Positions 6,328 to 46,343 of a DNA stretch of 64,000 bases are shown here, piece by piece (positions within the stretch are counted from its first letter, which is position 1; each line of letters opens with the position of its first letter). Position numbers and translations under genes: made by a program. This DNA comes from Naegleria gruberi. Lineage: Eukaryota. The notes beneath the pieces are model-generated. The model was not told the DNA's origin, did not search any database, and worked only from the letters and a program-made list of their open reading frames with translations. Location of the stretch: assembly GCA_000004985.1 (NCBI GenBank), contig GG738911.1; one strand, given 5' to 3'.

Positions 6328-6401
6328 TGCCTCCCTTGGGAATCGAACCCAAGACCTCTGTCTTACTAGGACAGCGCTACTGCCAACTGAGCTAGGAAGG
6401 C
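6328..6401 (-). tRNA. tRNA-Thr (anticodon AGT)
   Basis: Minus-strand read GCCTTCCTAGCTCAGTTGGCAGTAGCGCTGTCCTAGTAAGACAGAGGTCTTGGGTTCGATTCCCAAGGGAGGCA. Anticodon stem CTGTC/GACAG, loop CTAGTAA. T-arm TTGGG/TTCGATT/CCCAA. Acceptor 7 bp with one G-U. T-run downstream. Confidence 0.85.
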
Positions 6402-7617: not shown

Positions 7618-9027
7618 ATGTACAAAACCCTAGCAAGGCAGAATCAAGCCTTGTTTTCCAATCATCACTTTCGGAAGAGAATATCATATTCATCATCTTT
7701 ATCTTGGAATTATAATTCCAACAACAAGAACATTATTCAATCGTTTTCTTCCACGATACAATCATCTTCATCTTCCTCTATTATAAATAATAATAATCCA
7801 TTCTATTCTCATCATCATCCACTTCCAACTTCATCACCATTCAATAGTAGTAATGGAAGTAGTAACAAGAAAAATCAGAGAAAAAACAAGATGAAAATAC
7901 TATTCGGATTATTATGCCTCTCTTGCTTTTTATTTGAATATTCGATGGAGAATTGGAATAACAAGGTGATTAAATCGTATATTGCTTTCAATTCTTTGGA
8001 GAGGAAGAGATTGGAGGAGATGAATTTTGAGCTTTTTGATACAAGGAAATTAATTCCAGATATTATGGAACAAGTGATGAAAACAATACGAGAGAGGATG
8101 ACTTTACGAAATATCGATGAGTTGGATTCTGAGGAAGAGAAGACACAAAATGGATGGGTGAATCGATTGGAAAATTGGCTATTCAATGGTCATGACAATT
8201 GGTGGAGTTCAATTTCTCTTGGATATGTCATCATTCCGAGGAGTGTTGTCCTAACAGCAGGTACATTGCTTTTCCCTCTAGCCTTGTGTTTCACACCTCT
8301 ACATATTCTTACCTATCCACTTGGATTCATTTTGAATGTAGCGATGGAACATGTGGTAAGTGAGGAGGAAAATACCAAGGACAGAGATCAATTTCAAATG
8401 AATTGGAAAATGCAAACATTGGAAGTGATTGCAGATTTAGGACATTTGTATTCCATAATAACGAGAATTCCACAAACATTTTGCGAGCAAGTTGTAAATA
8501 ATTGGCAAGTTCCACAACACGAATGGAAGGAGAAGGAGGATTACCTCTTCTTGAAAATGGCCTACTCCAATCAGGAAAATGAATTATTGAGCCAAGAGGA
8601 AATTCACTCTGTCAACACTTTGATAGGAGATTTGGAATTTTATGATCAATCTCAAAAGTATTGCACTCGATATGATTGGGTCACTCAATCGCCACTCTAC
8701 ATTAACAATAGTACAGAGAGAGCATTTGGTCACTCGTATAATTTGTGGGCCGCTCTTGCATTGAGTAAGAGTGCCATTCTGTGGCTTTGCAATTCTGATT
8801 GTGAAATCAGAGTTGATAAGGACAAGATTGAGGAAAATAAGAAACAACGAAAGAGGAGAATTCAGGTAGCTTTGGAAAATTTTGAAAAGGCAAACAAGAT
8901 TTTTGCATTCATATTGGAAAATCCTTCAAAATCTTTAACAATTGAATCATCCAAAGTGAAGGAACTCAAATCAAAGATTGAGGAAAATATCAAAATTGCC
9001 AATTTTGAATTGGAAAAGCTGGAATAA
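7618..9027 (+). CDS. hypothetical protein with S/N-rich N-terminus, internal hydrophobic segments and K/E-rich C-terminus
   Basis: 469-aa ORF with ATG at 7618. Signal-like 'MKILFGLLCLSCFLFEYS' at aa ~92 could be the true start. TM-like 'VVLTAGTLLFPLALCFTPLHILTYPLGFILNVA'. Confidence 0.5.
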   Translation: MYKTLARQNQALFSNHHFRKRISYSSSLSWNYNSNNKNIIQSFSSTIQSSSSSSIINNNNPFYSHHHPLPTSSPFNSSNGSSNKKNQRKNKMKILFGLLCLSCFLFEYSMENWNNKVIKSYIAFNSLERKRLEEMNFELFDTRKLIPDIMEQVMKTIRERMTLRNIDELDSEEEKTQNGWVNRLENWLFNGHDNWWSSISLGYVIIPRSVVLTAGTLLFPLALCFTPLHILTYPLGFILNVAMEHVVSEEENTKDRDQFQMNWKMQTLEVIADLGHLYSIITRIPQTFCEQVVNNWQVPQHEWKEKEDYLFLKMAYSNQENELLSQEEIHSVNTLIGDLEFYDQSQKYCTRYDWVTQSPLYINNSTERAFGHSYNLWAALALSKSAILWLCNSDCEIRVDKDKIEENKKQRKRRIQVALENFEKANKIFAFILENPSKSLTIESSKVKELKSKIEENIKIANFELEKLE

Positions 9028-9273: not shown

Positions 9274-12200
9274 ATGATACATACAACACCTTCATCTGGA
9301 ACAAGTGAAACCTCTCACTATTTACTTCCGAACCAAGGTAATGAGAACAATCGAATATTTTCCTCTCCTTCATCATTAGAATATTCTCTTTCATCTCTGG
9401 GAAGTCATAGTCCGCAGTTCTATCACAGTCCACCTACGAGTCCTGAATCTTTGAATTTAATGGAAAATCATAATGAAAATCATCGACTAGTTCAAGATCA
9501 ACATGAAGATTTAAAATATTTGGACGATAATAGTGGACAACATCAATATTCAATGGAAACTGGTCAGAGTTCAATAACAACAGAGAATCATCATAATAAT
9601 TGTGATAGTTATGAAGTTTCGTTGAATATTGATGATGGACACATGAATGGACATGAGACAGATGAGTTTAGAGTAGACACAGGTATTCGGTCAGTGCTTA
9701 GACGATTTTCGTGGCTTACACTTGGGTCCTCTTCGAGTACTACTCCAAGGAGTCGTCATTCCATTGGATTACCCACAACCAACAATTTATTTAGTCCACC
9801 CATTACAGAGACGAGAAAGTTCAGTATTGGGCAAAAGCAACATCCAAATACGGCATTCGTTTTGATGAGTCCACAAAGTCCACGAACCACCACTCCATCA
9901 CCAACTACAAGCTCATCAAGTATGGCTCATGAATTGGAGCAGCAAAATCATGAATCTGTGGAAACTCCAGTGTCTTCATTGGTTGACCAAGATATTGCTC
10001 AATCAGGAGATGTTACTCCAGTTCAGTCCAACAATTATCGAGCAAATACATATTCTCCACCTCCATTCACCAGAACTATTTCTGTAGTCTTAAACGACAT
10101 TACGAATTCACCTGTTGGTGTCGAGAGAAGGAGACGAGATTCAATTGCCTCGAATAAGAAAGTTAATGAACGAGCTAATAGTATTGCATACCGTACTTCG
10201 AATATCACCAATCTGATTAATAACACGTCATTCCACAGCACAAAGAAGCAACTTGAAAAGGAAAAGAAGAGGAGAGGAGAATCATGTTCCAAATTTTGTC
10301 ATTCCTTCTTTACCATTTCAAATATTTTGATGGGAATTTTCATTTTGCAAGCAATTGTTTGCTTGATTTTTGGAATTTCAATTATGAGAGCTGGTGGTGC
10401 CATTTTGGATGTGAAAATTCGTGAATATCAATTCTTACAAATCAGGGCATTTGTAGAGGAACGTATCAGTAGCTTCACCTCAAAATACACAACCATGACT
10501 AATCACATGATGGAAGGTTTGAAGGGAATTCCCATCAATGATAATGTTGCCCTTCTGAGATTCTTTGATTATGTAGCAATTACCTTTGGAACTGATACCT
10601 CACTGAATCGAATGGAATTCTATAGAATGGATGATTCATTCTCCATGCTTAGAGATTTCAATAATGGAAAATCTGTAATTTCAATCAATTCCATTTCGAA
10701 TCCATCCATGTTTTCGACCTATTTGTGGCCTAAGACTCTTACTTTTGTGGAGAACCCAAATGGATACTATGCCTCTTCAAGTGATACTTCCTATTCGATT
10801 TATAAGAATTACATGTATGGACCCATACTCGAATTGAACGAAATATTTAACAATTCGGCCGTGCTCAATAATTTTATTCTCAACAATCAGGAAGTATTTT
10901 GTAAATCACTCTCTAGCAATATTCCATCTAATTACAACAATTTCAAATGGGTACCAAGCAAATCCATTCAAAATTCGAGTATTTTCCTGCATTATCCAGT
11001 TTATATCAGTAACAATTACAATCATACCATTGTGTCTCCCAATACGAGAAAGATGTTCATTGTAAATTCAGATCAAAATTTGGAGAATAGCTACTTGTTT
11101 GGAGTTTTCAGTTTGCACTTTTCAATTGATAGATTTACAACCTTGTTAAATGTTCAGAATGAGAGATTCTACTTGCAATCCGAGTATTCTTCAAATACAA
11201 GTTTTATCATGAATACGTGGGGTGATATTTTGGCTACTAGAGGAGATGGAAACGAATCTCTACACAATATTCAACTCATTTACAAAACCATCATGAAACA
11301 TGGTCTTAAAAAGAATTGTGAAGTTGAGAGTGAAGTTATAGACATTCCAAATACTAGATTGACTGCTAGATTGTCGTATACTTGTGATGGTCATGGATTG
11401 AATTTGGTATTGGTTGTTGAAATGGACAATTCAGATTCTTTCATTCCTCTATTATTGGCAAATAATTCAATTCTTTCGTTTGTGGCATCATTTTTGCTGA
11501 TTATCGTGTCTATCATTGTAATGATTGCAGTTCTGAGAGCTCTCAATACATCAATGGAACGAATGTCGAAGAAATTACACAGAATTACAAGACTAAAACA
11601 AAGGGAAAGCGAGGGAGGCAAATCATTCAGTCAAATCATTTCAGATTTCTTCCCAAACACGTCAATGACTGTTTTCTATGAAGTGAGAGAAATTGAAAAT
11701 CTAATCATGTTATTGGGTCAAGGAATGGATGCTTTGAAAAAGTTTCTTCCCGAACCGTTTGTTAAAGAGATTATACTATCAAAACCACTGCCTTTCAATG
11801 TTGCAACAAAGAAGCACTTGACAATCTTGTTTTGTGAGCTGGCAGGTTGTGATAAGATGGCAGATACTATTGATATTCCTCTCTTTTTGGAAATGATTAC
11901 AGAGTACAGTTCAATAATGTGTAAAATCATTCAGGATCATAAGGGTATGATTGATCGATTTGATGGAGGAACAGCCATGTGCTTATTCTCCTTCCAGGAT
12001 AACACTTTAATTCCAACTGAACAAAATCAAGAAGTAAATGCATGTCATGCTGCCATGGATATCATTTACATGATGGAGGATTTCAAAACCAAGTGGCAAA
12101 AACGTACAGGGCATCCAATTCACATTGAGATTGGAATTAATTCTGGAGAGATTTATTATGGAAATTTCAATTGCACTGATTCTAGATCAAGTTATTCAGT

Positions 12201-12657
12201 GCTCGGTGCAAGCTTAGATATTGCCTCTACTTTGCAACGTTTCAATTTTTCATACTCTACACAGGTTCTCATTGGAGAGGAGACATTCTTGAAAGTTAAG
12301 GATATTTTCGTGTGTTATTTTGTGGATTTGGTGAGATTTTCTGGCTACAAGAAAAGGAGGGGAATGAAAATATATTCATTAGAATGTCCAGTTCGAGAGA
12401 GCACCGATTTGGAGAGGAAGATTGCACTGGATTTGGAACAAGTTCAGCAAAAAATCATGGAAAAGAGTTATGCCTCTGCTTTGAGTTTATGTGGACAAGT
12501 CATGCTGTTCAATGATAGACCACAAGTGAGTTATTTGCACAATCGATTGAGCCATGCAAAAGAAGAGAGCGAAAAGGTGATTCCCAATGATAATGATCTT
12601 TTTTCTACAGTGGCAAACTTTGGTATTGATCCAGAGGAGATTTTATCATTCTTGTAA
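9274..12657 (+). CDS. receptor-like membrane protein with class III adenylyl/guanylyl cyclase homology domain (catalytic residues divergent)
   Basis: 1127 aa. Low-complexity N-terminus, then TM1 'FFTISNILMGIFILQAIVCLIFGISIM', a sensor-like domain of ~350 aa, TM2 'LLLANNSILSFVASFLLIIVSIIVMIAVL', and a C-terminal segment 'TILFCELAGCD...DRFDGGTAMCLF...IHIEIGINSGEIYYGNFN...VLGASLDIASTLQ' that aligns with cyclase catalytic-domain motifs. Confidence 0.7.
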   Translation: MIHTTPSSGTSETSHYLLPNQGNENNRIFSSPSSLEYSLSSLGSHSPQFYHSPPTSPESLNLMENHNENHRLVQDQHEDLKYLDDNSGQHQYSMETGQSSITTENHHNNCDSYEVSLNIDDGHMNGHETDEFRVDTGIRSVLRRFSWLTLGSSSSTTPRSRHSIGLPTTNNLFSPPITETRKFSIGQKQHPNTAFVLMSPQSPRTTTPSPTTSSSSMAHELEQQNHESVETPVSSLVDQDIAQSGDVTPVQSNNYRANTYSPPPFTRTISVVLNDITNSPVGVERRRRDSIASNKKVNERANSIAYRTSNITNLINNTSFHSTKKQLEKEKKRRGESCSKFCHSFFTISNILMGIFILQAIVCLIFGISIMRAGGAILDVKIREYQFLQIRAFVEERISSFTSKYTTMTNHMMEGLKGIPINDNVALLRFFDYVAITFGTDTSLNRMEFYRMDDSFSMLRDFNNGKSVISINSISNPSMFSTYLWPKTLTFVENPNGYYASSSDTSYSIYKNYMYGPILELNEIFNNSAVLNNFILNNQEVFCKSLSSNIPSNYNNFKWVPSKSIQNSSIFLHYPVYISNNYNHTIVSPNTRKMFIVNSDQNLENSYLFGVFSLHFSIDRFTTLLNVQNERFYLQSEYSSNTSFIMNTWGDILATRGDGNESLHNIQLIYKTIMKHGLKKNCEVESEVIDIPNTRLTARLSYTCDGHGLNLVLVVEMDNSDSFIPLLLANNSILSFVASFLLIIVSIIVMIAVLRALNTSMERMSKKLHRITRLKQRESEGGKSFSQIISDFFPNTSMTVFYEVREIENLIMLLGQGMDALKKFLPEPFVKEIILSKPLPFNVATKKHLTILFCELAGCDKMADTIDIPLFLEMITEYSSIMCKIIQDHKGMIDRFDGGTAMCLFSFQDNTLIPTEQNQEVNACHAAMDIIYMMEDFKTKWQKRTGHPIHIEIGINSGEIYYGNFNCTDSRSSYSVLGASLDIASTLQRFNFSYSTQVLIGEETFLKVKDIFVCYFVDLVRFSGYKKRRGMKIYSLECPVRESTDLERKIALDLEQVQQKIMEKSYASALSLCGQVMLFNDRPQVSYLHNRLSHAKEESEKVIPNDNDLFSTVANFGIDPEEILSFL

Positions 12658-12682: not shown

Positions 12683-12754
12683 CTCCCGTGCCGGGAATTG
12701 AACCCGGATCTCCTGGGTGAGAGCCAGGTATCTTAGCCATTGGACCACACGGGA
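12683..12754 (-). tRNA. tRNA-Glu (anticodon CTC)
   Basis: Minus-strand read TCCCGTGTGGTCCAATGGCTAAGATACCTGGCTCTCACCCAGGAGATCCGGGTTCAATTCCCGGCACGGGAG. Anticodon stem CCTGG/CCAGG, loop CTCTCAC. T-arm CCGGG/TTCAATT/CCCGG. T-run downstream. The 88-aa ORF 12531..12797 is the tRNA translated and is not a gene. Confidence 0.85.
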
Positions 12755-12946
12755 TTCTTGTTAACTTCTTGAAAATATTGTTCATAACCACATCCATGAC
12801 CTAAGGCACTAAGGTAGCTCAGTTAATGTTGTTTCCAATTCATAACTGTGTTGTGCTGATTGACAAGTAAATCATCTTTGGAGTATGTAATCAACCGCCA
12901 AAATCACCCGCCAAAATCTTAAACAATAAAATAAAAAAAAAAATTG

Positions 12947-13788
12947 ATGAGCACATCAACTAGGAACGACAGAGGATGTCCAGAACAAATAGGAAAATCC
13001 TCTTCAAGGAGTAACTATACGGCATCTATTGATGAGATGGCAACAGCAAGTAAACCTCATTCCTCTCTACATCGGAGTAGCAGCGTTCCAAAACGATCTT
13101 CTCCTCTTGTGGAGCAGCAACTATCATCATCTTCAAATCAAAGATCATCTTCTGGAAATCATCATCGGAAATCATCATCAGCAACACCAGTAACACCATC
13201 ACCATCGGAAGATCACCAATTAACCTACGAGGAAGCAGTTAAAAAATTAGATGAATTATCGCCCAAATCTAAAGGAATACTCAAATCAATAATGAAAATG
13301 ATGAGTCCTTCAAATAATAATGCAATAGAAAATGGAAATAATAATATTAATGCAAATCAAAATAATAATAACAAAAATAATATTGTAACTTCAACAACTA
13401 GGGAACAAAATAGAGAAAAACAACAACCAAATAGAGAACCACCATCATCTAGGACAATTAATAATTTAAATGAAATTGAAAAAATGGCAACAGTGAATTT
13501 TGCTAATGAACCACAATCATCATCTTCTAGAGGAGTAATTACAGGAGAAGAAAAACCAAGTTTGAGGAGGACTGTTTCATCAATACCCGAAGTAACAAAA
13601 CCAAAGAGGACTTCAAGTAATCGGGTAGTGACGCTTAATGTTGGAGGTCAAATATTTCAAACTACAAGCAAGACACTACGAGGGTGCGAATCACTTTTTT
13701 CATTAGTATTTTCGGAGAAGGATACAGTGCTGAGAGATGACAATGGTCATGTATTTATAGATAGAGATCCAAAATATTTTAGATACAT
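12947..13788 (+). CDS. KCTD-like BTB/POZ (K+-channel tetramerisation, T1-type) domain protein, exon 1
   Basis: Low-complexity N-terminus, then 'VVTLNVGGQIFQTTSKTLRGCESLFSLVF...DNGHVFIDRDPKYFRY', the canonical T1/BTB_2 motif. Exon ends AT|GTAGGT, phase 2. Confidence 0.8.
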
Positions 13789-13866
13789 GTAGGTTTTGAA
13801 TTAAGGAAAATCAATAATAATTAATATTTATTTTACCTTCAAATAATGAATAATAATTTAACACAG

Positions 13867-19972: not shown

Positions 19973-22309
19973 ATGACAACAGACAGCCATCATCACTCGC
20001 TTCTCATACGACAATACATCTTTCTATCCTCCATTCTTCTTCTCCTTTTCGTCTTTTCACAAGTTTCGTCTCAAGATTATTACATTTCGAATACGGGATT
20101 TTTAGCTCCACAACCAGATGGAATAACATACAATGCAGGGAGTTTATATGTAGCCCTGAATGCTACCAATAGAATAGTCAAGTTTGACCTCACCTCGCAA
20201 CAAGTTTCGTATATTGCTGGAACTGGCCAGGAAGGTTTCGGTGGAGAAAACGAAATTGCGACCGAATCTCCTCTCCGAGCTCCATCAATTGCAAAACTGG
20301 CCTCTGATGGTACCATTTACATTACCGATTGTTCAAATGATAGAATTAGAAAGATTGTTGCTGGCAATGTTTCGACTCTAGTTTCGTCTATTTCATTGAG
20401 TCGACCTTTCGGATTAGATATTCATCCAATAAGTGGTGATTTGTACATTTCAGAATTAACTTCACGAATTGTCAAATTGACACCAAGTTCTGGAATAGCA
20501 GAAGCTTTGACTTTGAATGGAAATGGTTACAATGGAGATCAAATTCTAGCAATTTCTGCCAATGTCAACAATCCATTGCATATCCACGTGAAAAGTAATG
20601 GAGAATATTACTTTTTGGATTATGGAAATAATGCTATTCGAAAGGTGGATCTAAATGGATATATTTCTACAATAGTTTTGGGTGCATTTACTGCTATTGG
20701 TGGCGATCCTTTAATTAGTAATGAATTTTATTATGGAGGAGTTGGACAAATTTTCAAATATTCGAATGGATCATCTGTTCTAATTGCTGGTGGAGGAGTT
20801 TTGGATGTGGATGATGTTGATGCTAAAACTGTAATGTTTGGCCAAGTTTTTGGAATTACTTTGGGAGTGAGTGGTGAGGTTTACTTTTCAGATTATGGAA
20901 ATGGAAGAATTAGAAAGTTGGTGACATGTAGTGCAGGAACTTCCTATTCTGGCTATACTCATTCGTGTGTTTCTTGTTTTGGAGCAAGTGGTGCAGGGGC
21001 ATGTTCTGGAAATGGTGTTTGCATTAATAATGATGTTTGCGCATGTACTGTTTCAGGTTTTAGTGGAACTTATTGCAATGTTTCCGTTACTACTTGTTTT
21101 AACATTACAAGCGATCAGCCAACTACTTGTTCAGGTCATGGATCTTGCGTTTCTTTGAATAATTGTTCGTGTCTTTCTGGATATGATGCAATCGATTGCT
21201 CTGTCAACATTTCACCATTTGCAATGAGTACCAGTATTTCTTCAACCTCAGTTTCAGACTCTTCAGCAATTGGCATTCAAGCAATTTACTCTTCAGATGT
21301 TAATCCAACTTATTTCATTTGGGCTTGTACGAATTGTATCTATAAGGATTCGAATAATCAATTGCAATTTAGCAATATATCAAATACTGCCATTATTGAT
21401 GGTTCATTACTCAGTGTAGGAACTTATTCATTTACTGTTTATGGTATTTATGATAATGGACCTTCGTATCCAGCCAGAGTTTCGAATGTTGCCAATTTCC
21501 AAATCACAGTAATCAAATCAGTATTTTCTTCATCTTCGTTGGAGATTTATGGATTGCCATCGGTTGTGGTGGCTACAAACGCATCAAGCTCTCTCAACAT
21601 TATCATTCCACGACTTTCTCTCGATCAAACTCTCATTAATCAATTCTTGTCATGCAGTAACAGCTCAACAACATGTGGATTGTTAATTTCCTACAATGCT
21701 GCTCTGTCAATTACCAAGAACTCAATTACCTCCGTCATTTCAAGTTACAACGGTTACACCATGGCCAGTACAAATTTCATGAATAATACCATCACCTTTA
21801 CTCCATCTTTGAATTTTAAGGATAGTAATGCATATTCTGGCACTGAAATGATTCTCAATTTGGAGCTTACTGGTGCCACCAATTTGACCTTCTCTACTTC
21901 AGTACCAATTTATTCTTCAGCCACTCCACCACAAAGTACATCTGCAAATTCGACAGGTGGCGTGTTGGTTGATGTTTTGGGAATAGTGTCTCCATCATCA
22001 GGTAGAGCCCTCTCTGATCTTTTCACAATTACTTTTTCATCATGGACTGCAGCAGCTCAATTATTACCTTTGAAATATTCTGTTGGATTTGTAGATCCTG
22101 TTACTTCGAATGTGGTGAGAGTTACCGATTATACAGAGACCACTTCAGCTAATTTCATTCTTCCTTATCTTTCTTCGGTTTCTAATAGTAGAGGCCTTTT
22201 AGCTACTAGCTCGGTATCTGTAGTTGTTTTTGTGAATGATTCTATGGGAAATCAATATTCAAGTACTGTTCTCCCTATGCAGGAACAACGACAGAGTTGG
22301 TTTCTCTAA
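19973..22309 (+). CDS. adhesion-GPCR-like protein, ectodomain segment: signal peptide, NHL-type beta-propeller repeats, EGF-like repeats, S/T-rich region
   Basis: Signal peptide 'MTTDSHHHSLLIRQYIFLSSILLLLFVFSQVSSQ'. Repeats of the form 'YIAGTGQEGFGGE...DGTIYITDCSNDRIRKI'. EGF-like 'CSGNGVCINNDVCACTVSGFSGTYC', 'CSGHGSCVSLNNCSCLSGYDAIDC'. Confidence 0.75.
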   Translation: MTTDSHHHSLLIRQYIFLSSILLLLFVFSQVSSQDYYISNTGFLAPQPDGITYNAGSLYVALNATNRIVKFDLTSQQVSYIAGTGQEGFGGENEIATESPLRAPSIAKLASDGTIYITDCSNDRIRKIVAGNVSTLVSSISLSRPFGLDIHPISGDLYISELTSRIVKLTPSSGIAEALTLNGNGYNGDQILAISANVNNPLHIHVKSNGEYYFLDYGNNAIRKVDLNGYISTIVLGAFTAIGGDPLISNEFYYGGVGQIFKYSNGSSVLIAGGGVLDVDDVDAKTVMFGQVFGITLGVSGEVYFSDYGNGRIRKLVTCSAGTSYSGYTHSCVSCFGASGAGACSGNGVCINNDVCACTVSGFSGTYCNVSVTTCFNITSDQPTTCSGHGSCVSLNNCSCLSGYDAIDCSVNISPFAMSTSISSTSVSDSSAIGIQAIYSSDVNPTYFIWACTNCIYKDSNNQLQFSNISNTAIIDGSLLSVGTYSFTVYGIYDNGPSYPARVSNVANFQITVIKSVFSSSSLEIYGLPSVVVATNASSSLNIIIPRLSLDQTLINQFLSCSNSSTTCGLLISYNAALSITKNSITSVISSYNGYTMASTNFMNNTITFTPSLNFKDSNAYSGTEMILNLELTGATNLTFSTSVPIYSSATPPQSTSANSTGGVLVDVLGIVSPSSGRALSDLFTITFSSWTAAAQLLPLKYSVGFVDPVTSNVVRVTDYTETTSANFILPYLSSVSNSRGLLATSSVSVVVFVNDSMGNQYSSTVLPMQEQRQSWFL

Positions 22310-24927
22310 TCGGTTCATATGCCAGCTCTTCTCTTCTCACTGTTTTCAGTTATGACACCTCTCTTTCCGCTGCCAATTCTACTTCCTCAAGTGATGTTGC
22401 ATTGGAAATTGTGAAGAGTGTAGTAATTGATCCAAAGAATCCTACCACAGCTCTCACAGCCATTCAACAAGCTACCTCAAATCCAGAGGCTGTCGATTCT
22501 CGTGTCATTACTGAATTAACTAACAAGATTAATAATTTTGTAGCAACTCTCAATACTAATTACAAAGAAGAGAGAGCTCTTTATGGATTTGTCAAATCTA
22601 AATTGGCAACTGCTGACACAACAAGAACAACAGAAATTATTTCAAATGTTTTGGCAAGTGGAAGAGGAAATCAACAATCTAAGGGAATGGCAGATAATTT
22701 GACCAATTTATTAATTTTGGGAGAAATTGCCACATTATTAACTGGTCAGGATCAATCATCAGATGTTAACGAGTTGACCAAAGTTTCCTTCACATCTTCT
22801 CAATTGGATATTGCTGTTGCCGTCTTTACTTTGGATAAAGAAATGAATGGAACCAATCAAATGATTGGAGGTGATAATTCTGTAACCATGCCATTGTCAC
22901 AAATCACGAAACAATACAATGGATTCTCTAAAGAATCTGCCACTACCATGATCACCTATGATCAAAATATTTACTCTCAATCCAATGTTAGCGTCCTAAC
23001 TTCAACAGTGACTGATTTTAAATATTATCAAAATCAACAAGTTGTAACATTGGAGAATTTATCACAAAATATTGAACTCAAATTCAAAATTACAAATTCT
23101 ACAATTGTAATGGAAAAGATTATGGAATATATCAATAGTACAACTCAATTCAATTCAACCTCAAACAGCACCCAATCCAATTCTACTCTAGTGATGGCTT
23201 GCAAATATTGGGATGAATCTGCACTTGCTTGGAGCAGTAGAGGATGCTATCTGAAAGGATACAATTTGACAAGTCAAGAAATTCTCTGTTCTTGTTCTCA
23301 CACGACAATGTTCACAACCTTTGTGGAACAAAACACTTCGACAATTCCTGCTTCAGTGAAGGAAACAGTTGCTGCCTTTTATTATGGTCAAATTGCGTTG
23401 GGAATTTTCTATTTCTTGACTTCCATTGTCATTCTTTGTTTGTTGATTATTTTCAAGAATGAACAACCAATTTCATCTCGTTTGATTACTCCATACTTGG
23501 GAATGATTGCATTGATTGTGGAATCTCTTCTCGTTTACATTACACAAAGAGGTATTTTAGTGAGACAGTTGACTTCTACTTCAACTCAAATGTGGGAATC
23601 TGGAGATACTGATGCCAACACAATTGCAAACATTGTTCTCATATTTGCGAATACCATTAATTTGACAGCCATTTTATCTTATGTCATGCAAGTGTTGAGA
23701 TTCCAAGTTATGAAATACTTGTACGATTTATTGGCCTCCAGTAGAAATAATGAAAAGAAGAGCGATAGAATTTTGACAGTTTTGAGATTCTTGACATCTT
23801 CCTCATTGTTTTCCGCTATTTTAATTGTATTTGCAGTTATTAATGTATGCTATTGGGTCTTGTGGGTTGTTTTGAGAAGAACTGGAGTCCTTCCACCAGC
23901 AACATACACCTACATTGTTTCCATTTCGTATACGGTTATCATTTTCACATTTGGTGTCATTATTACATTGGTAGCAATCTTTGACTGGGTTGGATCTTCA
24001 GCCAAAGCAGGAATCAAAGCCAAGAGAAACTCCTCACTCACCAGAGAATCCAAATTCAAAATTGAAGAAGAAATTCAGAAGGAAATGGAAAAGTTTGATA
24101 TTTTCGAAAAGATTTACACAATTCTAGTAGGAATTGATGAACCATTGTATTTCAGAACTGAAATGATTATTTATGTGATTAGTTTCGTATTTTTAATCTT
24201 AAATCAAGTTATTGGATTGGTAGGAAATGAACTTAGATATGGAAATGAAGCCTCGTACAAGAAGGCGCTAATATTCGACTCCATTTCATTTATTTTCGAA
24301 GTTCTCTACGTGTTTACCTATTTATTTGTCTTTGGAGGATACTCTCTCATTCTATTACTCATTAGCAAGGTGAAAACATACAGAAATAACAAGGAAATGA
24401 AAAAATCTGCCAAGAAAAACATCAGCCAAGGTAGAGAAATCAACGAGGACATGTCACTTGTCTTTTCCAGCGATGAAGCCACTGAATTATTCGCCAGTTT
24501 CTGCGTTAAGGAATTCTCCTCTGAAAACTTTTATCTCTACTCAGATTTGAAAGAAAATACAGACATTATCGAAGGTAATAACATGCGAAAATTGCATCCA
24601 TATCTTCACTACATTCACGACACGTATGTGAAAGATGGCGCCAACTATCAAGTGAATATTCCAAACAAGTGCAGAACTAGTTTTATGAATCTGTTCAACA
24701 AGTATGCGAATGAGGTTTTGGAAATGTTGGATTCACAACTCAGTGAAAAGATCTCAACGGAAATAAGGAGTAGTTTTGAAATTCTAGTTCAGCAAATATT
24801 TGTCAATTTGGGAGATACCTTTTCAAGATTTGTATTTACTGTGGAATTTAAGGTTTTTAAGAAAGCATATGAACTTAGACAGGATATTTTGGAGGAATCT
24901 AATGTTGTTTTAATTGATGATGAGTAA
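22297..24927 (+). CDS. adhesion-GPCR-like protein, GAIN/GPS + 7TM + C-terminal RGS-domain segment, frame-shifted -1 from the previous ORF
   Basis: GPS motif 'CKYWDESALAWSSRGCYLKGYNLTSQEILCSCSHTTMFTTF'. Seven hydrophobic helices. RGS domain 'ELFASFCVKEFSSENFYLYSDLKE...QVNIPNKCRTSFMNLF...DTFSRFVFTVEFKVF'. This frame is open from 22240, so the break lies within 22240-22307. Confidence 0.75.
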   Translation: MVSLIGSYASSSLLTVFSYDTSLSAANSTSSSDVALEIVKSVVIDPKNPTTALTAIQQATSNPEAVDSRVITELTNKINNFVATLNTNYKEERALYGFVKSKLATADTTRTTEIISNVLASGRGNQQSKGMADNLTNLLILGEIATLLTGQDQSSDVNELTKVSFTSSQLDIAVAVFTLDKEMNGTNQMIGGDNSVTMPLSQITKQYNGFSKESATTMITYDQNIYSQSNVSVLTSTVTDFKYYQNQQVVTLENLSQNIELKFKITNSTIVMEKIMEYINSTTQFNSTSNSTQSNSTLVMACKYWDESALAWSSRGCYLKGYNLTSQEILCSCSHTTMFTTFVEQNTSTIPASVKETVAAFYYGQIALGIFYFLTSIVILCLLIIFKNEQPISSRLITPYLGMIALIVESLLVYITQRGILVRQLTSTSTQMWESGDTDANTIANIVLIFANTINLTAILSYVMQVLRFQVMKYLYDLLASSRNNEKKSDRILTVLRFLTSSSLFSAILIVFAVINVCYWVLWVVLRRTGVLPPATYTYIVSISYTVIIFTFGVIITLVAIFDWVGSSAKAGIKAKRNSSLTRESKFKIEEEIQKEMEKFDIFEKIYTILVGIDEPLYFRTEMIIYVISFVFLILNQVIGLVGNELRYGNEASYKKALIFDSISFIFEVLYVFTYLFVFGGYSLILLLISKVKTYRNNKEMKKSAKKNISQGREINEDMSLVFSSDEATELFASFCVKEFSSENFYLYSDLKENTDIIEGNNMRKLHPYLHYIHDTYVKDGANYQVNIPNKCRTSFMNLFNKYANEVLEMLDSQLSEKISTEIRSSFEILVQQIFVNLGDTFSRFVFTVEFKVFKKAYELRQDILEESNVVLIDDE

Positions 24928-30911: not shown

Positions 30912-30992
30912 GCAGGGGTTCCCGAGTGGTCAAAGGGGGTAGACTCAAGTTCTACTGCGCAAGCTTCGTGGGTTCAAATCCCACCTTCTGCA
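30912..30992 (+). tRNA. tRNA-Leu (anticodon CAA), type II with long variable arm
   Basis: GCAGGGGTTCCCGAGTGGTCAAAGGGGGTAGACTCAAGTTCTACTGCGCAAGCTTCGTGGGTTCAAATCCCACCTTCTGCA. Anticodon stem GTAGA/TCTAC, loop CTCAAGT. T-arm GTGGG/TTCAAAT/CCCAC. The decoded codon UUG matches the most used Leu codon in this window. Confidence 0.85.
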
Positions 30993-31338: not shown

Positions 31339-31411
31339 GGGGACTTGGCGCAGTCGGTAGCGCGTAGGTCTCATAATCCTAAGGTCGTGAGTTCGATCCT
31401 CACAGTCCCCA
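31339..31411 (+). tRNA. tRNA-Met elongator (anticodon CAT)
   Basis: GGGGACTTGGCGCAGTCGGTAGCGCGTAGGTCTCATAATCCTAAGGTCGTGAGTTCGATCCTCACAGTCCCCA. G1:C72 and a TTCGATC T-loop mark it as elongator, not initiator. T-run follows. Confidence 0.85.
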
Positions 31412-46270: not shown

Positions 46271-46343
46271 TGCTGACGGACGGGATCGAACCGGCGACCA
46301 ATGGCTTATTAGACCAACGCTCTACCGACTGAGCTACGCCAGC
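46271..46343 (-). tRNA. tRNA-Ile (anticodon AAT), with one mismatch each in the anticodon and T stems
   Basis: Minus-strand read GCTGGCGTAGCTCAGTCGGTAGAGCGTTGGTCTAATAAGCCATTGGTCGCCGGTTCGATCCCGTCCGTCAGCA. Acceptor GCTGGCG/CGTCAGC, loop CTAATAA. T-run downstream. Confidence 0.65.

Follow-up and report, generated by a model that had tools for sequence, protein, structure and literature searches.

A single-exon gene of the heterolobosean amoeboflagellate Naegleria gruberi, at positions 9274-12657 (+ strand) of a 64,000-nucleotide stretch of contig GG738911.1 (assembly GCA_000004985.1; hereafter the window), encodes a two-transmembrane receptor whose class III cyclase homology domain (CHD) has a non-canonical residue at every one of eight catalytic positions. 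We consider it probable that the protein is a pseudo-cyclase receptor, derived from a bacterial-type cyclase with a double-Cache (dCache) sensor and signalling non-enzymatically. The original prediction, made by a model from the letters of the window alone, had suggested a pseudo-cyclase or regulatory receptor; among the readings weighed below this is the best supported, as both halves of the active site are degenerate.

Results

The open reading frame (ORF) runs uninterrupted from ATG to TAA (1127 codons plus the stop), and its 1127-residue product is 100% identical, over its full length, to the NCBI/UniRef entry "predicted protein [Naegleria gruberi]", which carries no precomputed Pfam domain. 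Because the frame is continuous and equals the NCBI model, an intron or frameshift artefact was rejected as the source of the degenerate motifs. The GC content of the window is about 29-37%, and that of the genome 35%.

The sole above-threshold Pfam match of the protein is Guanylate_cyc (PF00211), at residues 845-1024 and profile positions 5-172 of 183 (E 4.7e-5), with a score of merely 23.5 bits against a gathering threshold of 21.9. A phmmer search of PDB sequences returned the CyaB catalytic domain 3r5g over 189 residues (E 8.6e-18), CyaC 1wc0 (E 5e-12), and then photoactivated and other class III cyclases. Judged by these matches and the alignments described below, the homology of residues 845-1037 (11806-12384, +) to the class III cyclase fold is unambiguous. 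The nearest sequence relatives of the CHD are bacterial class IIIb receptor cyclases with dCache_1, CHASE2 or HAMP modules, such as CyaB (3r5g) and P0002, a gammaproteobacterial protein that combines dCache_1 with Guanylate_cyc. For this reason, the comparison with ACG and soluble guanylate cyclase (sGC) that was first proposed is less apt than one with these bacterial enzymes.

The catalytic positions were placed in four alignments: HMMER pairwise alignments to 3r5g and to 1wc0, and two MAFFT alignments with bacterial cyclases, one with ten database matches and one an L-INS-i alignment of 23 extracted cyclase domains. Residue states were scored against 18 bacterial reference cyclases and are numbered after Spirulina CyaC. 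The first metal-binding Asp (CyaC D1017, Asp in 18/18 references) is E855 (GAG, 11836-11838, +), within the motif FCELAGCD (residues 853-860). The second (CyaC D1061, also Asp in 18/18) is G899, within DGGTAM (897-902), and the "shifted" Asp of that motif, D897, lies two residues upstream of it. The substrate-specifying Lys (CyaC K1057, Lys in 14/18) is R895, in the same short stretch (R895-F-D897-G-G899, 11956-11970, +). The segment from S975 to T986 (12196-12231, +), which includes VLGASLDIAS (976-985), carries S975 for the base-specifying Thr/Asp (CyaC T1139, Thr in 16/18), D982 for the transition-state Asn (CyaC N1146, Asn in 18/18) and T986 for the transition-state Arg (CyaC R1150, Arg in 18/18). 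The two phosphate-binding basic residues are less strictly conserved in the references, and both are replaced here: E952 (12127-12129, +) stands for the phosphate-binding Arg (CyaC R1117, Arg in merely 10/18), and S1023 (12340-12342, +) for the gamma-phosphate Lys of the KGK motif (CyaC K1184, Lys in 14/18 and Arg in 3/18).

The placements are the same in all alignments, and misalignment was rejected as the cause of the degenerate motifs because the four agree. Neither metal-binding Asp, neither transition-state residue and neither phosphate-binding basic residue of an active cyclase is present. The substrate-specifying pair is Lys with Asp or Thr for ATP, and Glu with Cys for GTP. Relative to the Lys/Thr pair found in class IIIb adenylate cyclases, R895 and S975 are conservative changes, and they fit neither the adenylate nor the guanylate cyclase consensus exactly. 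The original prediction had noted Glu at the first Asp, a shifted second Asp and no Asn in VLGASLDIAS, and had proposed alignment to class III cyclases as the check. These three observations hold in every alignment, no canonical residue is restored by aligning, and the loss is wider than had been thought, at 8/8 positions.

Active sites of class III cyclases form at the dimer interface, where the metal half of one subunit meets the substrate and transition-state half of the other. Both half-sites are hit in the N. gruberi protein: E855, G899 and E952 on the metal side, and R895, D982, T986 and S1023 on the substrate/transition-state side. With both defective, a homodimer would have no canonical site, and there would be no intact half to offer a heterodimer partner. 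Going by its sequence, the receptor very probably makes neither cAMP nor cGMP.

The loss is selective. At the 30 columns conserved in at least 80% of the references, the N. gruberi CHD is identical at 13 and conservatively substituted at several more. Among the columns invariant in 18/18 references, it keeps seven of the eight non-catalytic ones (F853, G891, G898, G954, G958, G978 and G1024) and none of the four catalytic ones (Fisher p = 0.01). Such a selective loss, together with an intact 3.4-kb ORF in AT-rich DNA, is what one would expect if the fold is maintained and catalysis is not.

An exhaustive HMMER search of 1.84 billion representative proteins with the region from the first transmembrane segment through the sensor to the second (residues 340-800) recovered just three other proteins related in the ectodomain. 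These are a protein of N. lovaniensis (P0027, XP_044544950, 1012 residues; L001, PYSW02000037.1, 10001-13039), an environmental protein (P0028, 873 residues; 238-2859 of a 3-kb contig, L002, ENA ERZ27315067 k141_1069844) and a protein of Willaertia magna (P0029/P0030, KAL9656696/KAL9656697). The family profile and the N. gruberi protein were each also run against metagenomes, and neither scan returned a relative. All four members share one whole architecture, with an N-terminal tail, a transmembrane segment, an ectodomain of about 340-390 residues, a second transmembrane segment, a linker and a CHD, and they share motifs in the first transmembrane segment, in the linker (F-Y-D-[VI]-R) and C-terminal to the CHD (CYFVD). 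The N. gruberi protein is the most diverged, with 22-26% identity to the others overall, 16-27% in the sensor and about 30% in the CHD, and it has Asn/Ser-rich sensor insertions and the longest N-terminal tail. In a neighbour-joining tree with bacterial class IIIb cyclases, the four CHDs group together as a single clade in 198 of 200 bootstraps.

Within this family the catalytic residues run from canonical to degenerate. In the order metal Asp 1, substrate-specifying Lys, metal Asp 2, phosphate-binding Arg, base-specifying Thr, transition-state Asn, transition-state Arg and gamma-phosphate Lys, Willaertia has D, K, D, R, T, N, R, K (all eight canonical), the environmental protein D, K, D, K, S, N, K, D (Lys for both Arg), N. 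lovaniensis E, Q, G, T, S, N, E, N, and N. gruberi E, R, G, E, S, D, T, S. Guanylate_cyc scores follow the same order, at 78.8, 52.8, 29.5 and 23.5 bits, as does mean identity to bacterial CHDs, at 32.2%, 27.4%, 24.0% and 22.5%. Since Willaertia retains all canonical residues, activity was presumably the ancestral state and the Naegleria condition a derived one. The N. lovaniensis and environmental proteins are 50% identical in the sensor and only 30% in the CHD, whereas the more canonical CHDs of Willaertia and the environmental protein are 41% identical, which suggests that constraint on the CHD changed, or that its evolution sped up, where catalysis was lost.

The two Naegleria proteins share the Asp-to-Glu and Asp-to-Gly changes at the two metal positions, and they pair weakly in the CHD tree, in only 103 of 200 bootstraps, a grouping at risk of long-branch attraction. 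Sensor similarity instead pairs N. lovaniensis (at the 50% identity just given) with the environmental protein, which keeps both metal-binding Asp. The N. lovaniensis pattern thus points to either convergent loss or very unequal rates. When all ORFs from positions 1-30000 of the window were compared with the N. lovaniensis locus by tblastn, the cyclase-like gene alone found a match; with no shared neighbours, gene order gives no support for orthology.

Two side observations concern these relatives. The Willaertia isoforms P0029 (KAL9656696) and P0030 (KAL9656697) are distinguished by 20 residues that coincide exactly with the second transmembrane helix. In the shorter model the cyclase domain would end up across the membrane from where it belongs, and that model is therefore probably an annotation or splicing artefact. 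In two chytrid GAF-cyclases, P0023 and P0024 (Clydaea vesicula and Lobulomyces angularis), the loss is one-sided: Asn stands in for the first Asp, Cys for the Asn and Gln for the Arg, while the Lys, the second Asp and the gamma-phosphate Lys are retained. Their residues suggest that these are possibly heterodimer-type or pseudo-cyclases of early-diverging fungi.

Kyte-Doolittle hydropathy of the N. gruberi protein gives two strong transmembrane segments, TM1 at residues ~345-372 (10306-10389, +) and TM2 at ~726-757 (11449-11544, +). Lys and Arg number eight in the 25 residues before TM1 and seven after TM2, and four and zero in the flanks on the ectodomain side. Because these counts obey the positive-inside rule, both termini are predicted to be cytoplasmic and the 353 residues between the helices extracytoplasmic. 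The original prediction of a transmembrane segment, an extracytoplasmic domain of about 350 residues, a second transmembrane segment, a linker and a class III fold is thus borne out by hydropathy, charges, and Pfam and PDB matches. Absent from it was the cytoplasmic N-terminal region of 344 residues (9274-10305, +), which is of low complexity, rich in Ser, Thr, Asn and Pro, without a domain match, and ends in a basic cluster, KKQLEKEKKRR, directly ahead of TM1. In the family alignment, TM1 carries a T-x-x-N-x-L...F..Q motif conserved across the four members.

TM2 is followed by a cytoplasmic linker of about 87 residues (758-844; 11545-11805, +). It lies where the bacterial relatives have HAMP, contains an element conserved in the family alignment, F-Y-[DE]-[VI]-R, and closes with the helix ahead of the CHD, KKFLPEPFVKEI. 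There was no Pfam match to HAMP in the linker, and hhalign against HAMP-containing bacterial cyclases aligned merely 18 AS1-like columns at a probability of 21.6%, so that its standing as a HAMP-position linker is unproven. Beyond the CHD, a helical tail without a domain match (residues 1038-1127; 12385-12654, +) occupies the same place as the C-terminal extension of several bacterial and chytrid relatives.

The ectodomain (residues 373-725; 10390-11448, +) is a divergent double-Cache-like sensor by prediction. A long N-terminal helix comes first, followed by a distal PAS-like module that carries Asn/Ser-rich insertions, then by a proximal PAS-like module, and finally by a helix that leads into TM2. 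The original prediction had found no obvious family for it, and for the sequence this stands: the ectodomain had no Pfam match at E<=10, no Cache family matched any of the four family ectodomains at that threshold or the full-length protein at E<=1, the ectodomain profile had no match among PDB sequences at E<=10, and hhalign of the sensor against the dCache_1 cyclase P0002 was not significant (probability 2.6%). At the level of fold the statement gives way, as the relatives model as dCache. With the same four-sequence family alignment, the Willaertia ectodomain gave an AF2 model with a pLDDT of 64.7 and a pTM of 0.63; nearly all of its 46 Foldseek matches at E<=1e-3 are dCache domains, including Tlp3 (E 8.8e-9) and TlpA (TM-score 0.69, normalised to the target). 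The N. gruberi model is poor (pLDDT 42), but its full-length Foldseek matches in PDB are likewise all dCache ligand-binding domains (best E 2e-4, TM-scores of the top matches 0.3-0.43). The order of helices and strands is identical in the two models. The models indicate that the family ectodomain is a divergent dCache sensor. A CHASE sensor, as in ACG, was considered and is probably not present, as dCache matches outrank CHASE, though the folds are related; neither a CHASE sensor nor the canonical catalytic set of an ACG-type receptor was found. Where Willaertia has a P-R-P-W-F stretch, which we take to resemble the R-P-W-Y element typical of dCache_1, the family alignment shows Y-K-N-Y-M-Y in N. 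gruberi, and the ligand pocket may therefore differ as well.

No further cyclase-like ORF was found in the 64-kb window, and the opposite strand within 9274-12657 held nothing notable. The upstream neighbour, ORF 7618-9027 (+), encodes 469 residues with a low-complexity N-terminus, a hydrophobic segment and no Pfam match, and has no counterpart beside the N. lovaniensis homologue. Only 26 bp past the stop codon of the cyclase-like gene, the opposite strand carries a tRNA-Glu(CTC) gene (12683-12754, -), and four other tRNA genes are spread over the window: Thr (6328-6401, -), Leu (30912-30992, +), Met (31339-31411, +) and Ile (46271-46343, -). Farther downstream, ORF 12944-13792 (+) has a C-terminal BTB_2 domain of the potassium-channel tetramerisation type that is cut at profile position 55 of 94, and this gene probably continues past an intron. 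ORFs 19973-22309 (+) and 22297-24927 (+) are adjacent on the same strand with a slight overlap; the first has NHL and teneurin-like EGF domains and the second a GPS motif and an RGS domain. They are probably one large adhesion-GPCR-like, seven-transmembrane RGS receptor gene, split by a frameshift or an intron. Seven-transmembrane RGS proteins are described in Naegleria fowleri (PMC9283941).

Discussion

The reading that we favour is that of a type-II-like, two-transmembrane receptor that descends from a bacterial-type receptor with a dCache sensor, a transmembrane segment, a linker and a class IIIb adenylate cyclase. Its ectodomain would be a highly diverged double-Cache-like ligand sensor, and its CHD would still fold and presumably still dimerise. 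Much as in bacterial dCache cyclases, movement of the ectodomain on ligand binding would be relayed by TM2 and the linker, here to a CHD dimer without catalytic activity, and the output would be a protein-protein interaction instead of cyclic nucleotide synthesis. Candidate outputs are pairing with an active Naegleria cyclase, which would be damped or gated, and scaffolding through the 344-residue N-terminal region. D2VLR9 and D2V3A4, two N. gruberi cyclases discussed below, are plausible partners.

A more specific proposal is that these heterolobosean receptors arose from a horizontally acquired bacterial dCache cyclase, were made pseudo-cyclases in Naegleria, and gate active paralogues by heterodimerising, in a manner analogous to HER3. 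The conversion would have been either a single event or two independent ones that arrived at identical Asp-to-Glu and Asp-to-Gly replacements. We regard this chain of events as doubtful when taken as a whole.

Several observations weigh against a maintained pseudo-cyclase. No close orthologue was found among the 1.84 billion representatives or in the two metagenome scans by which purifying selection could be gauged. The N. gruberi protein is the fastest-evolving member of the family in both sensor and CHD, and by alignment its ectodomain is without the R-P-W-[YF]-like motif of Willaertia; the fast evolution and the lost motif are equally compatible with generally relaxed constraint. Its own dCache assignment comes mainly through homologues that are 16-27% identical and a low-confidence model, and is inconclusive. 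Finally, Glu is able to ligate metals, and E855, together with D897 two residues from the lost Asp, formally leaves room for residual or altered chemistry.

The first three of these points bear most directly on the possibility that the gene is a functionless relic, one of some 80-100 Naegleria cyclase genes, drifting, with an ORF that is open because decay is incomplete. The divergence of the protein fits this, as it is the most divergent of the four in the sensor (16-27%) and the CHD (~30%) and stands at 22.5% identity to bacterial CHDs where Willaertia stands at 32.2%. So do the erosion of the Cache-like motif of its sensor, the lack of a syntenic orthologue in N. lovaniensis, and the absence of close relatives from the collections searched. 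However, an uninterrupted frame of 1127 codons in AT-rich DNA is unexpected after enough time to replace eight catalytic residues. Drift would also not be expected to spare 7/8 invariant structural Gly/Phe positions and 0/4 catalytic ones, or to conserve the transmembrane segments, the linker motif and the family-specific CYFVD. N. lovaniensis, moreover, retains an intact gene that is similarly degenerate. We think a relic unlikely; it is the only one of the rival explanations that retains appreciable weight, because the N. gruberi protein is the fastest-evolving member in both domains.

It is quite improbable that the protein is a non-canonical enzyme, in which E855 and D897 hold the metals and a homodimer cyclises ATP or GTP or carries out another nucleotidyl transfer. 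Asp to Glu is conservative for metal binding, D897 at i-2 shares a strand with the lost Asp and would therefore, from the alignment, probably point to the same face, and R895 and S975 are conservative for the base-recognising Lys and Thr. Against this, the protein has also lost the transition-state pair (Asn and Arg, here D982 and T986) and the two basic residues that bind phosphate (here E952 and S1023), and D897 is not conserved, being Val in the degenerate N. lovaniensis protein. Precedent is unfavourable too: mutating the metal-binding Asp or the Asn/Arg pair cuts class III activity by orders of magnitude, and we know of no active class III cyclase in which both metal-binding Asp are missing.

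Very unlikely as well is an obligate catalytic heterodimer in the style of sGC alpha/beta or mammalian C1/C2, with one functional half-site: single-CHD proteins with one-sided degeneration are known to work in this way, one-sided loss is seen in the chytrid P0023 and P0024, and cyclases are numerous in Naegleria, whose genus pangenome counts at least 81 (PMC9928731), but here both sides are defective (E855, G899 and E952; R895, D982, T986 and S1023), leaving no canonical half-site of either kind, and a partner's metal site combined with R895, S975, D982 and T986 would make at best a severely crippled site.

The pseudo-cyclase that we favour can be set beside several known systems. Bacterial class IIIb receptor cyclases, of which Rv2435c of M. 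tuberculosis is an example (cited in PMC4822843), have the same module order, with a sensor between two transmembrane segments, a linker and a single dimerising CHD, and their dCache sensor fold appears, from the models, to be that of the Naegleria family. They differ in that the bacterial references keep both metal-binding Asp, the Asn and the Arg in 18/18, of which the N. gruberi protein keeps none, in that its sensor is unrecognised by Pfam dCache_1 (PF02743), and in its eukaryotic host and long low-complexity N-terminus. Two N. gruberi proteins with dCache_1 and Guanylate_cyc, D2VLR9 (894 residues) and D2V3A4 (745 residues), were described as "bacterial-type" and attributed to horizontal transfer (Upadhyay et al. 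2016, PMC4822843). They share the organism and the module combination with the 1127-residue protein, which is outside that paper's list. Both are matched by the dCache_1 HMM (E ~1e-7), unlike the protein described here, and neither is among the relatives of its sensor at E<=1e-3, so that they are at best distant paralogues.

Dictyostelium ACG and the trypanosomatid receptor cyclases are protist receptors in which one extracellular sensor is joined to one CHD, and this CHD has to dimerise; they are active, with the catalytic set intact. ACG has a sensor of the CHASE class, and those of trypanosomes are similar to periplasmic binding proteins. The N. gruberi receptor has the same combination of a sensor with a single CHD, but has lost the catalytic set that they keep. 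Degenerate parallels exist in the pseudo-symmetric forskolin site of mammalian C1/C2, sGC beta, the GGDEF receptors LapD, PelD and FimX, and the receptor pseudokinase HER3. In these a fold is kept for allostery, dimerisation or ligand binding, and the N. gruberi protein may be analogous in concept. In C1/C2 and sGC the degeneration is confined to one of the two sites, and the dimer remains enzymatically active, whereas here both half-sites are degenerate in a single-CHD protein. Pseudokinases have been reviewed (PMC13259870, PMC7586955).

A literature search found no paper with the terms "pseudo-cyclase", "pseudocyclase" or "catalytically inactive cyclase". Degenerate CHDs have precedents, such as those of the chytrid P0023 and P0024, which are without the first Asp, the Asn and the Arg, and some dead copies are expected in a genome with some 80-100 cyclases. 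What is new is a small heterolobosean dCache-cyclase family with a canonical-to-degenerate series, and within it a single-CHD receptor that has lost both half-sites. For N. gruberi it adds a third, putative dCache-type receptor, previously unrecognised and annotated merely as "predicted protein".

The series from Willaertia (canonical) through the environmental protein (intermediate) to Naegleria (degenerate) offers a natural experiment in how a class III cyclase becomes a pseudoenzyme. It also means that counts of "cyclases" by domain match in protist genomes overestimate catalytic capacity, though the practical consequence is modest. If gating of active paralogues proves true, the receptor would be a ligand-regulated, non-catalytic subunit of a kind new to single-domain class III cyclases. 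The Naegleria cyclase repertoire is among the largest of any eukaryote, and a receptor that has a sensor, a membrane anchor and the fold, with no half-site, would make part of that repertoire regulatory, not enzymatic.

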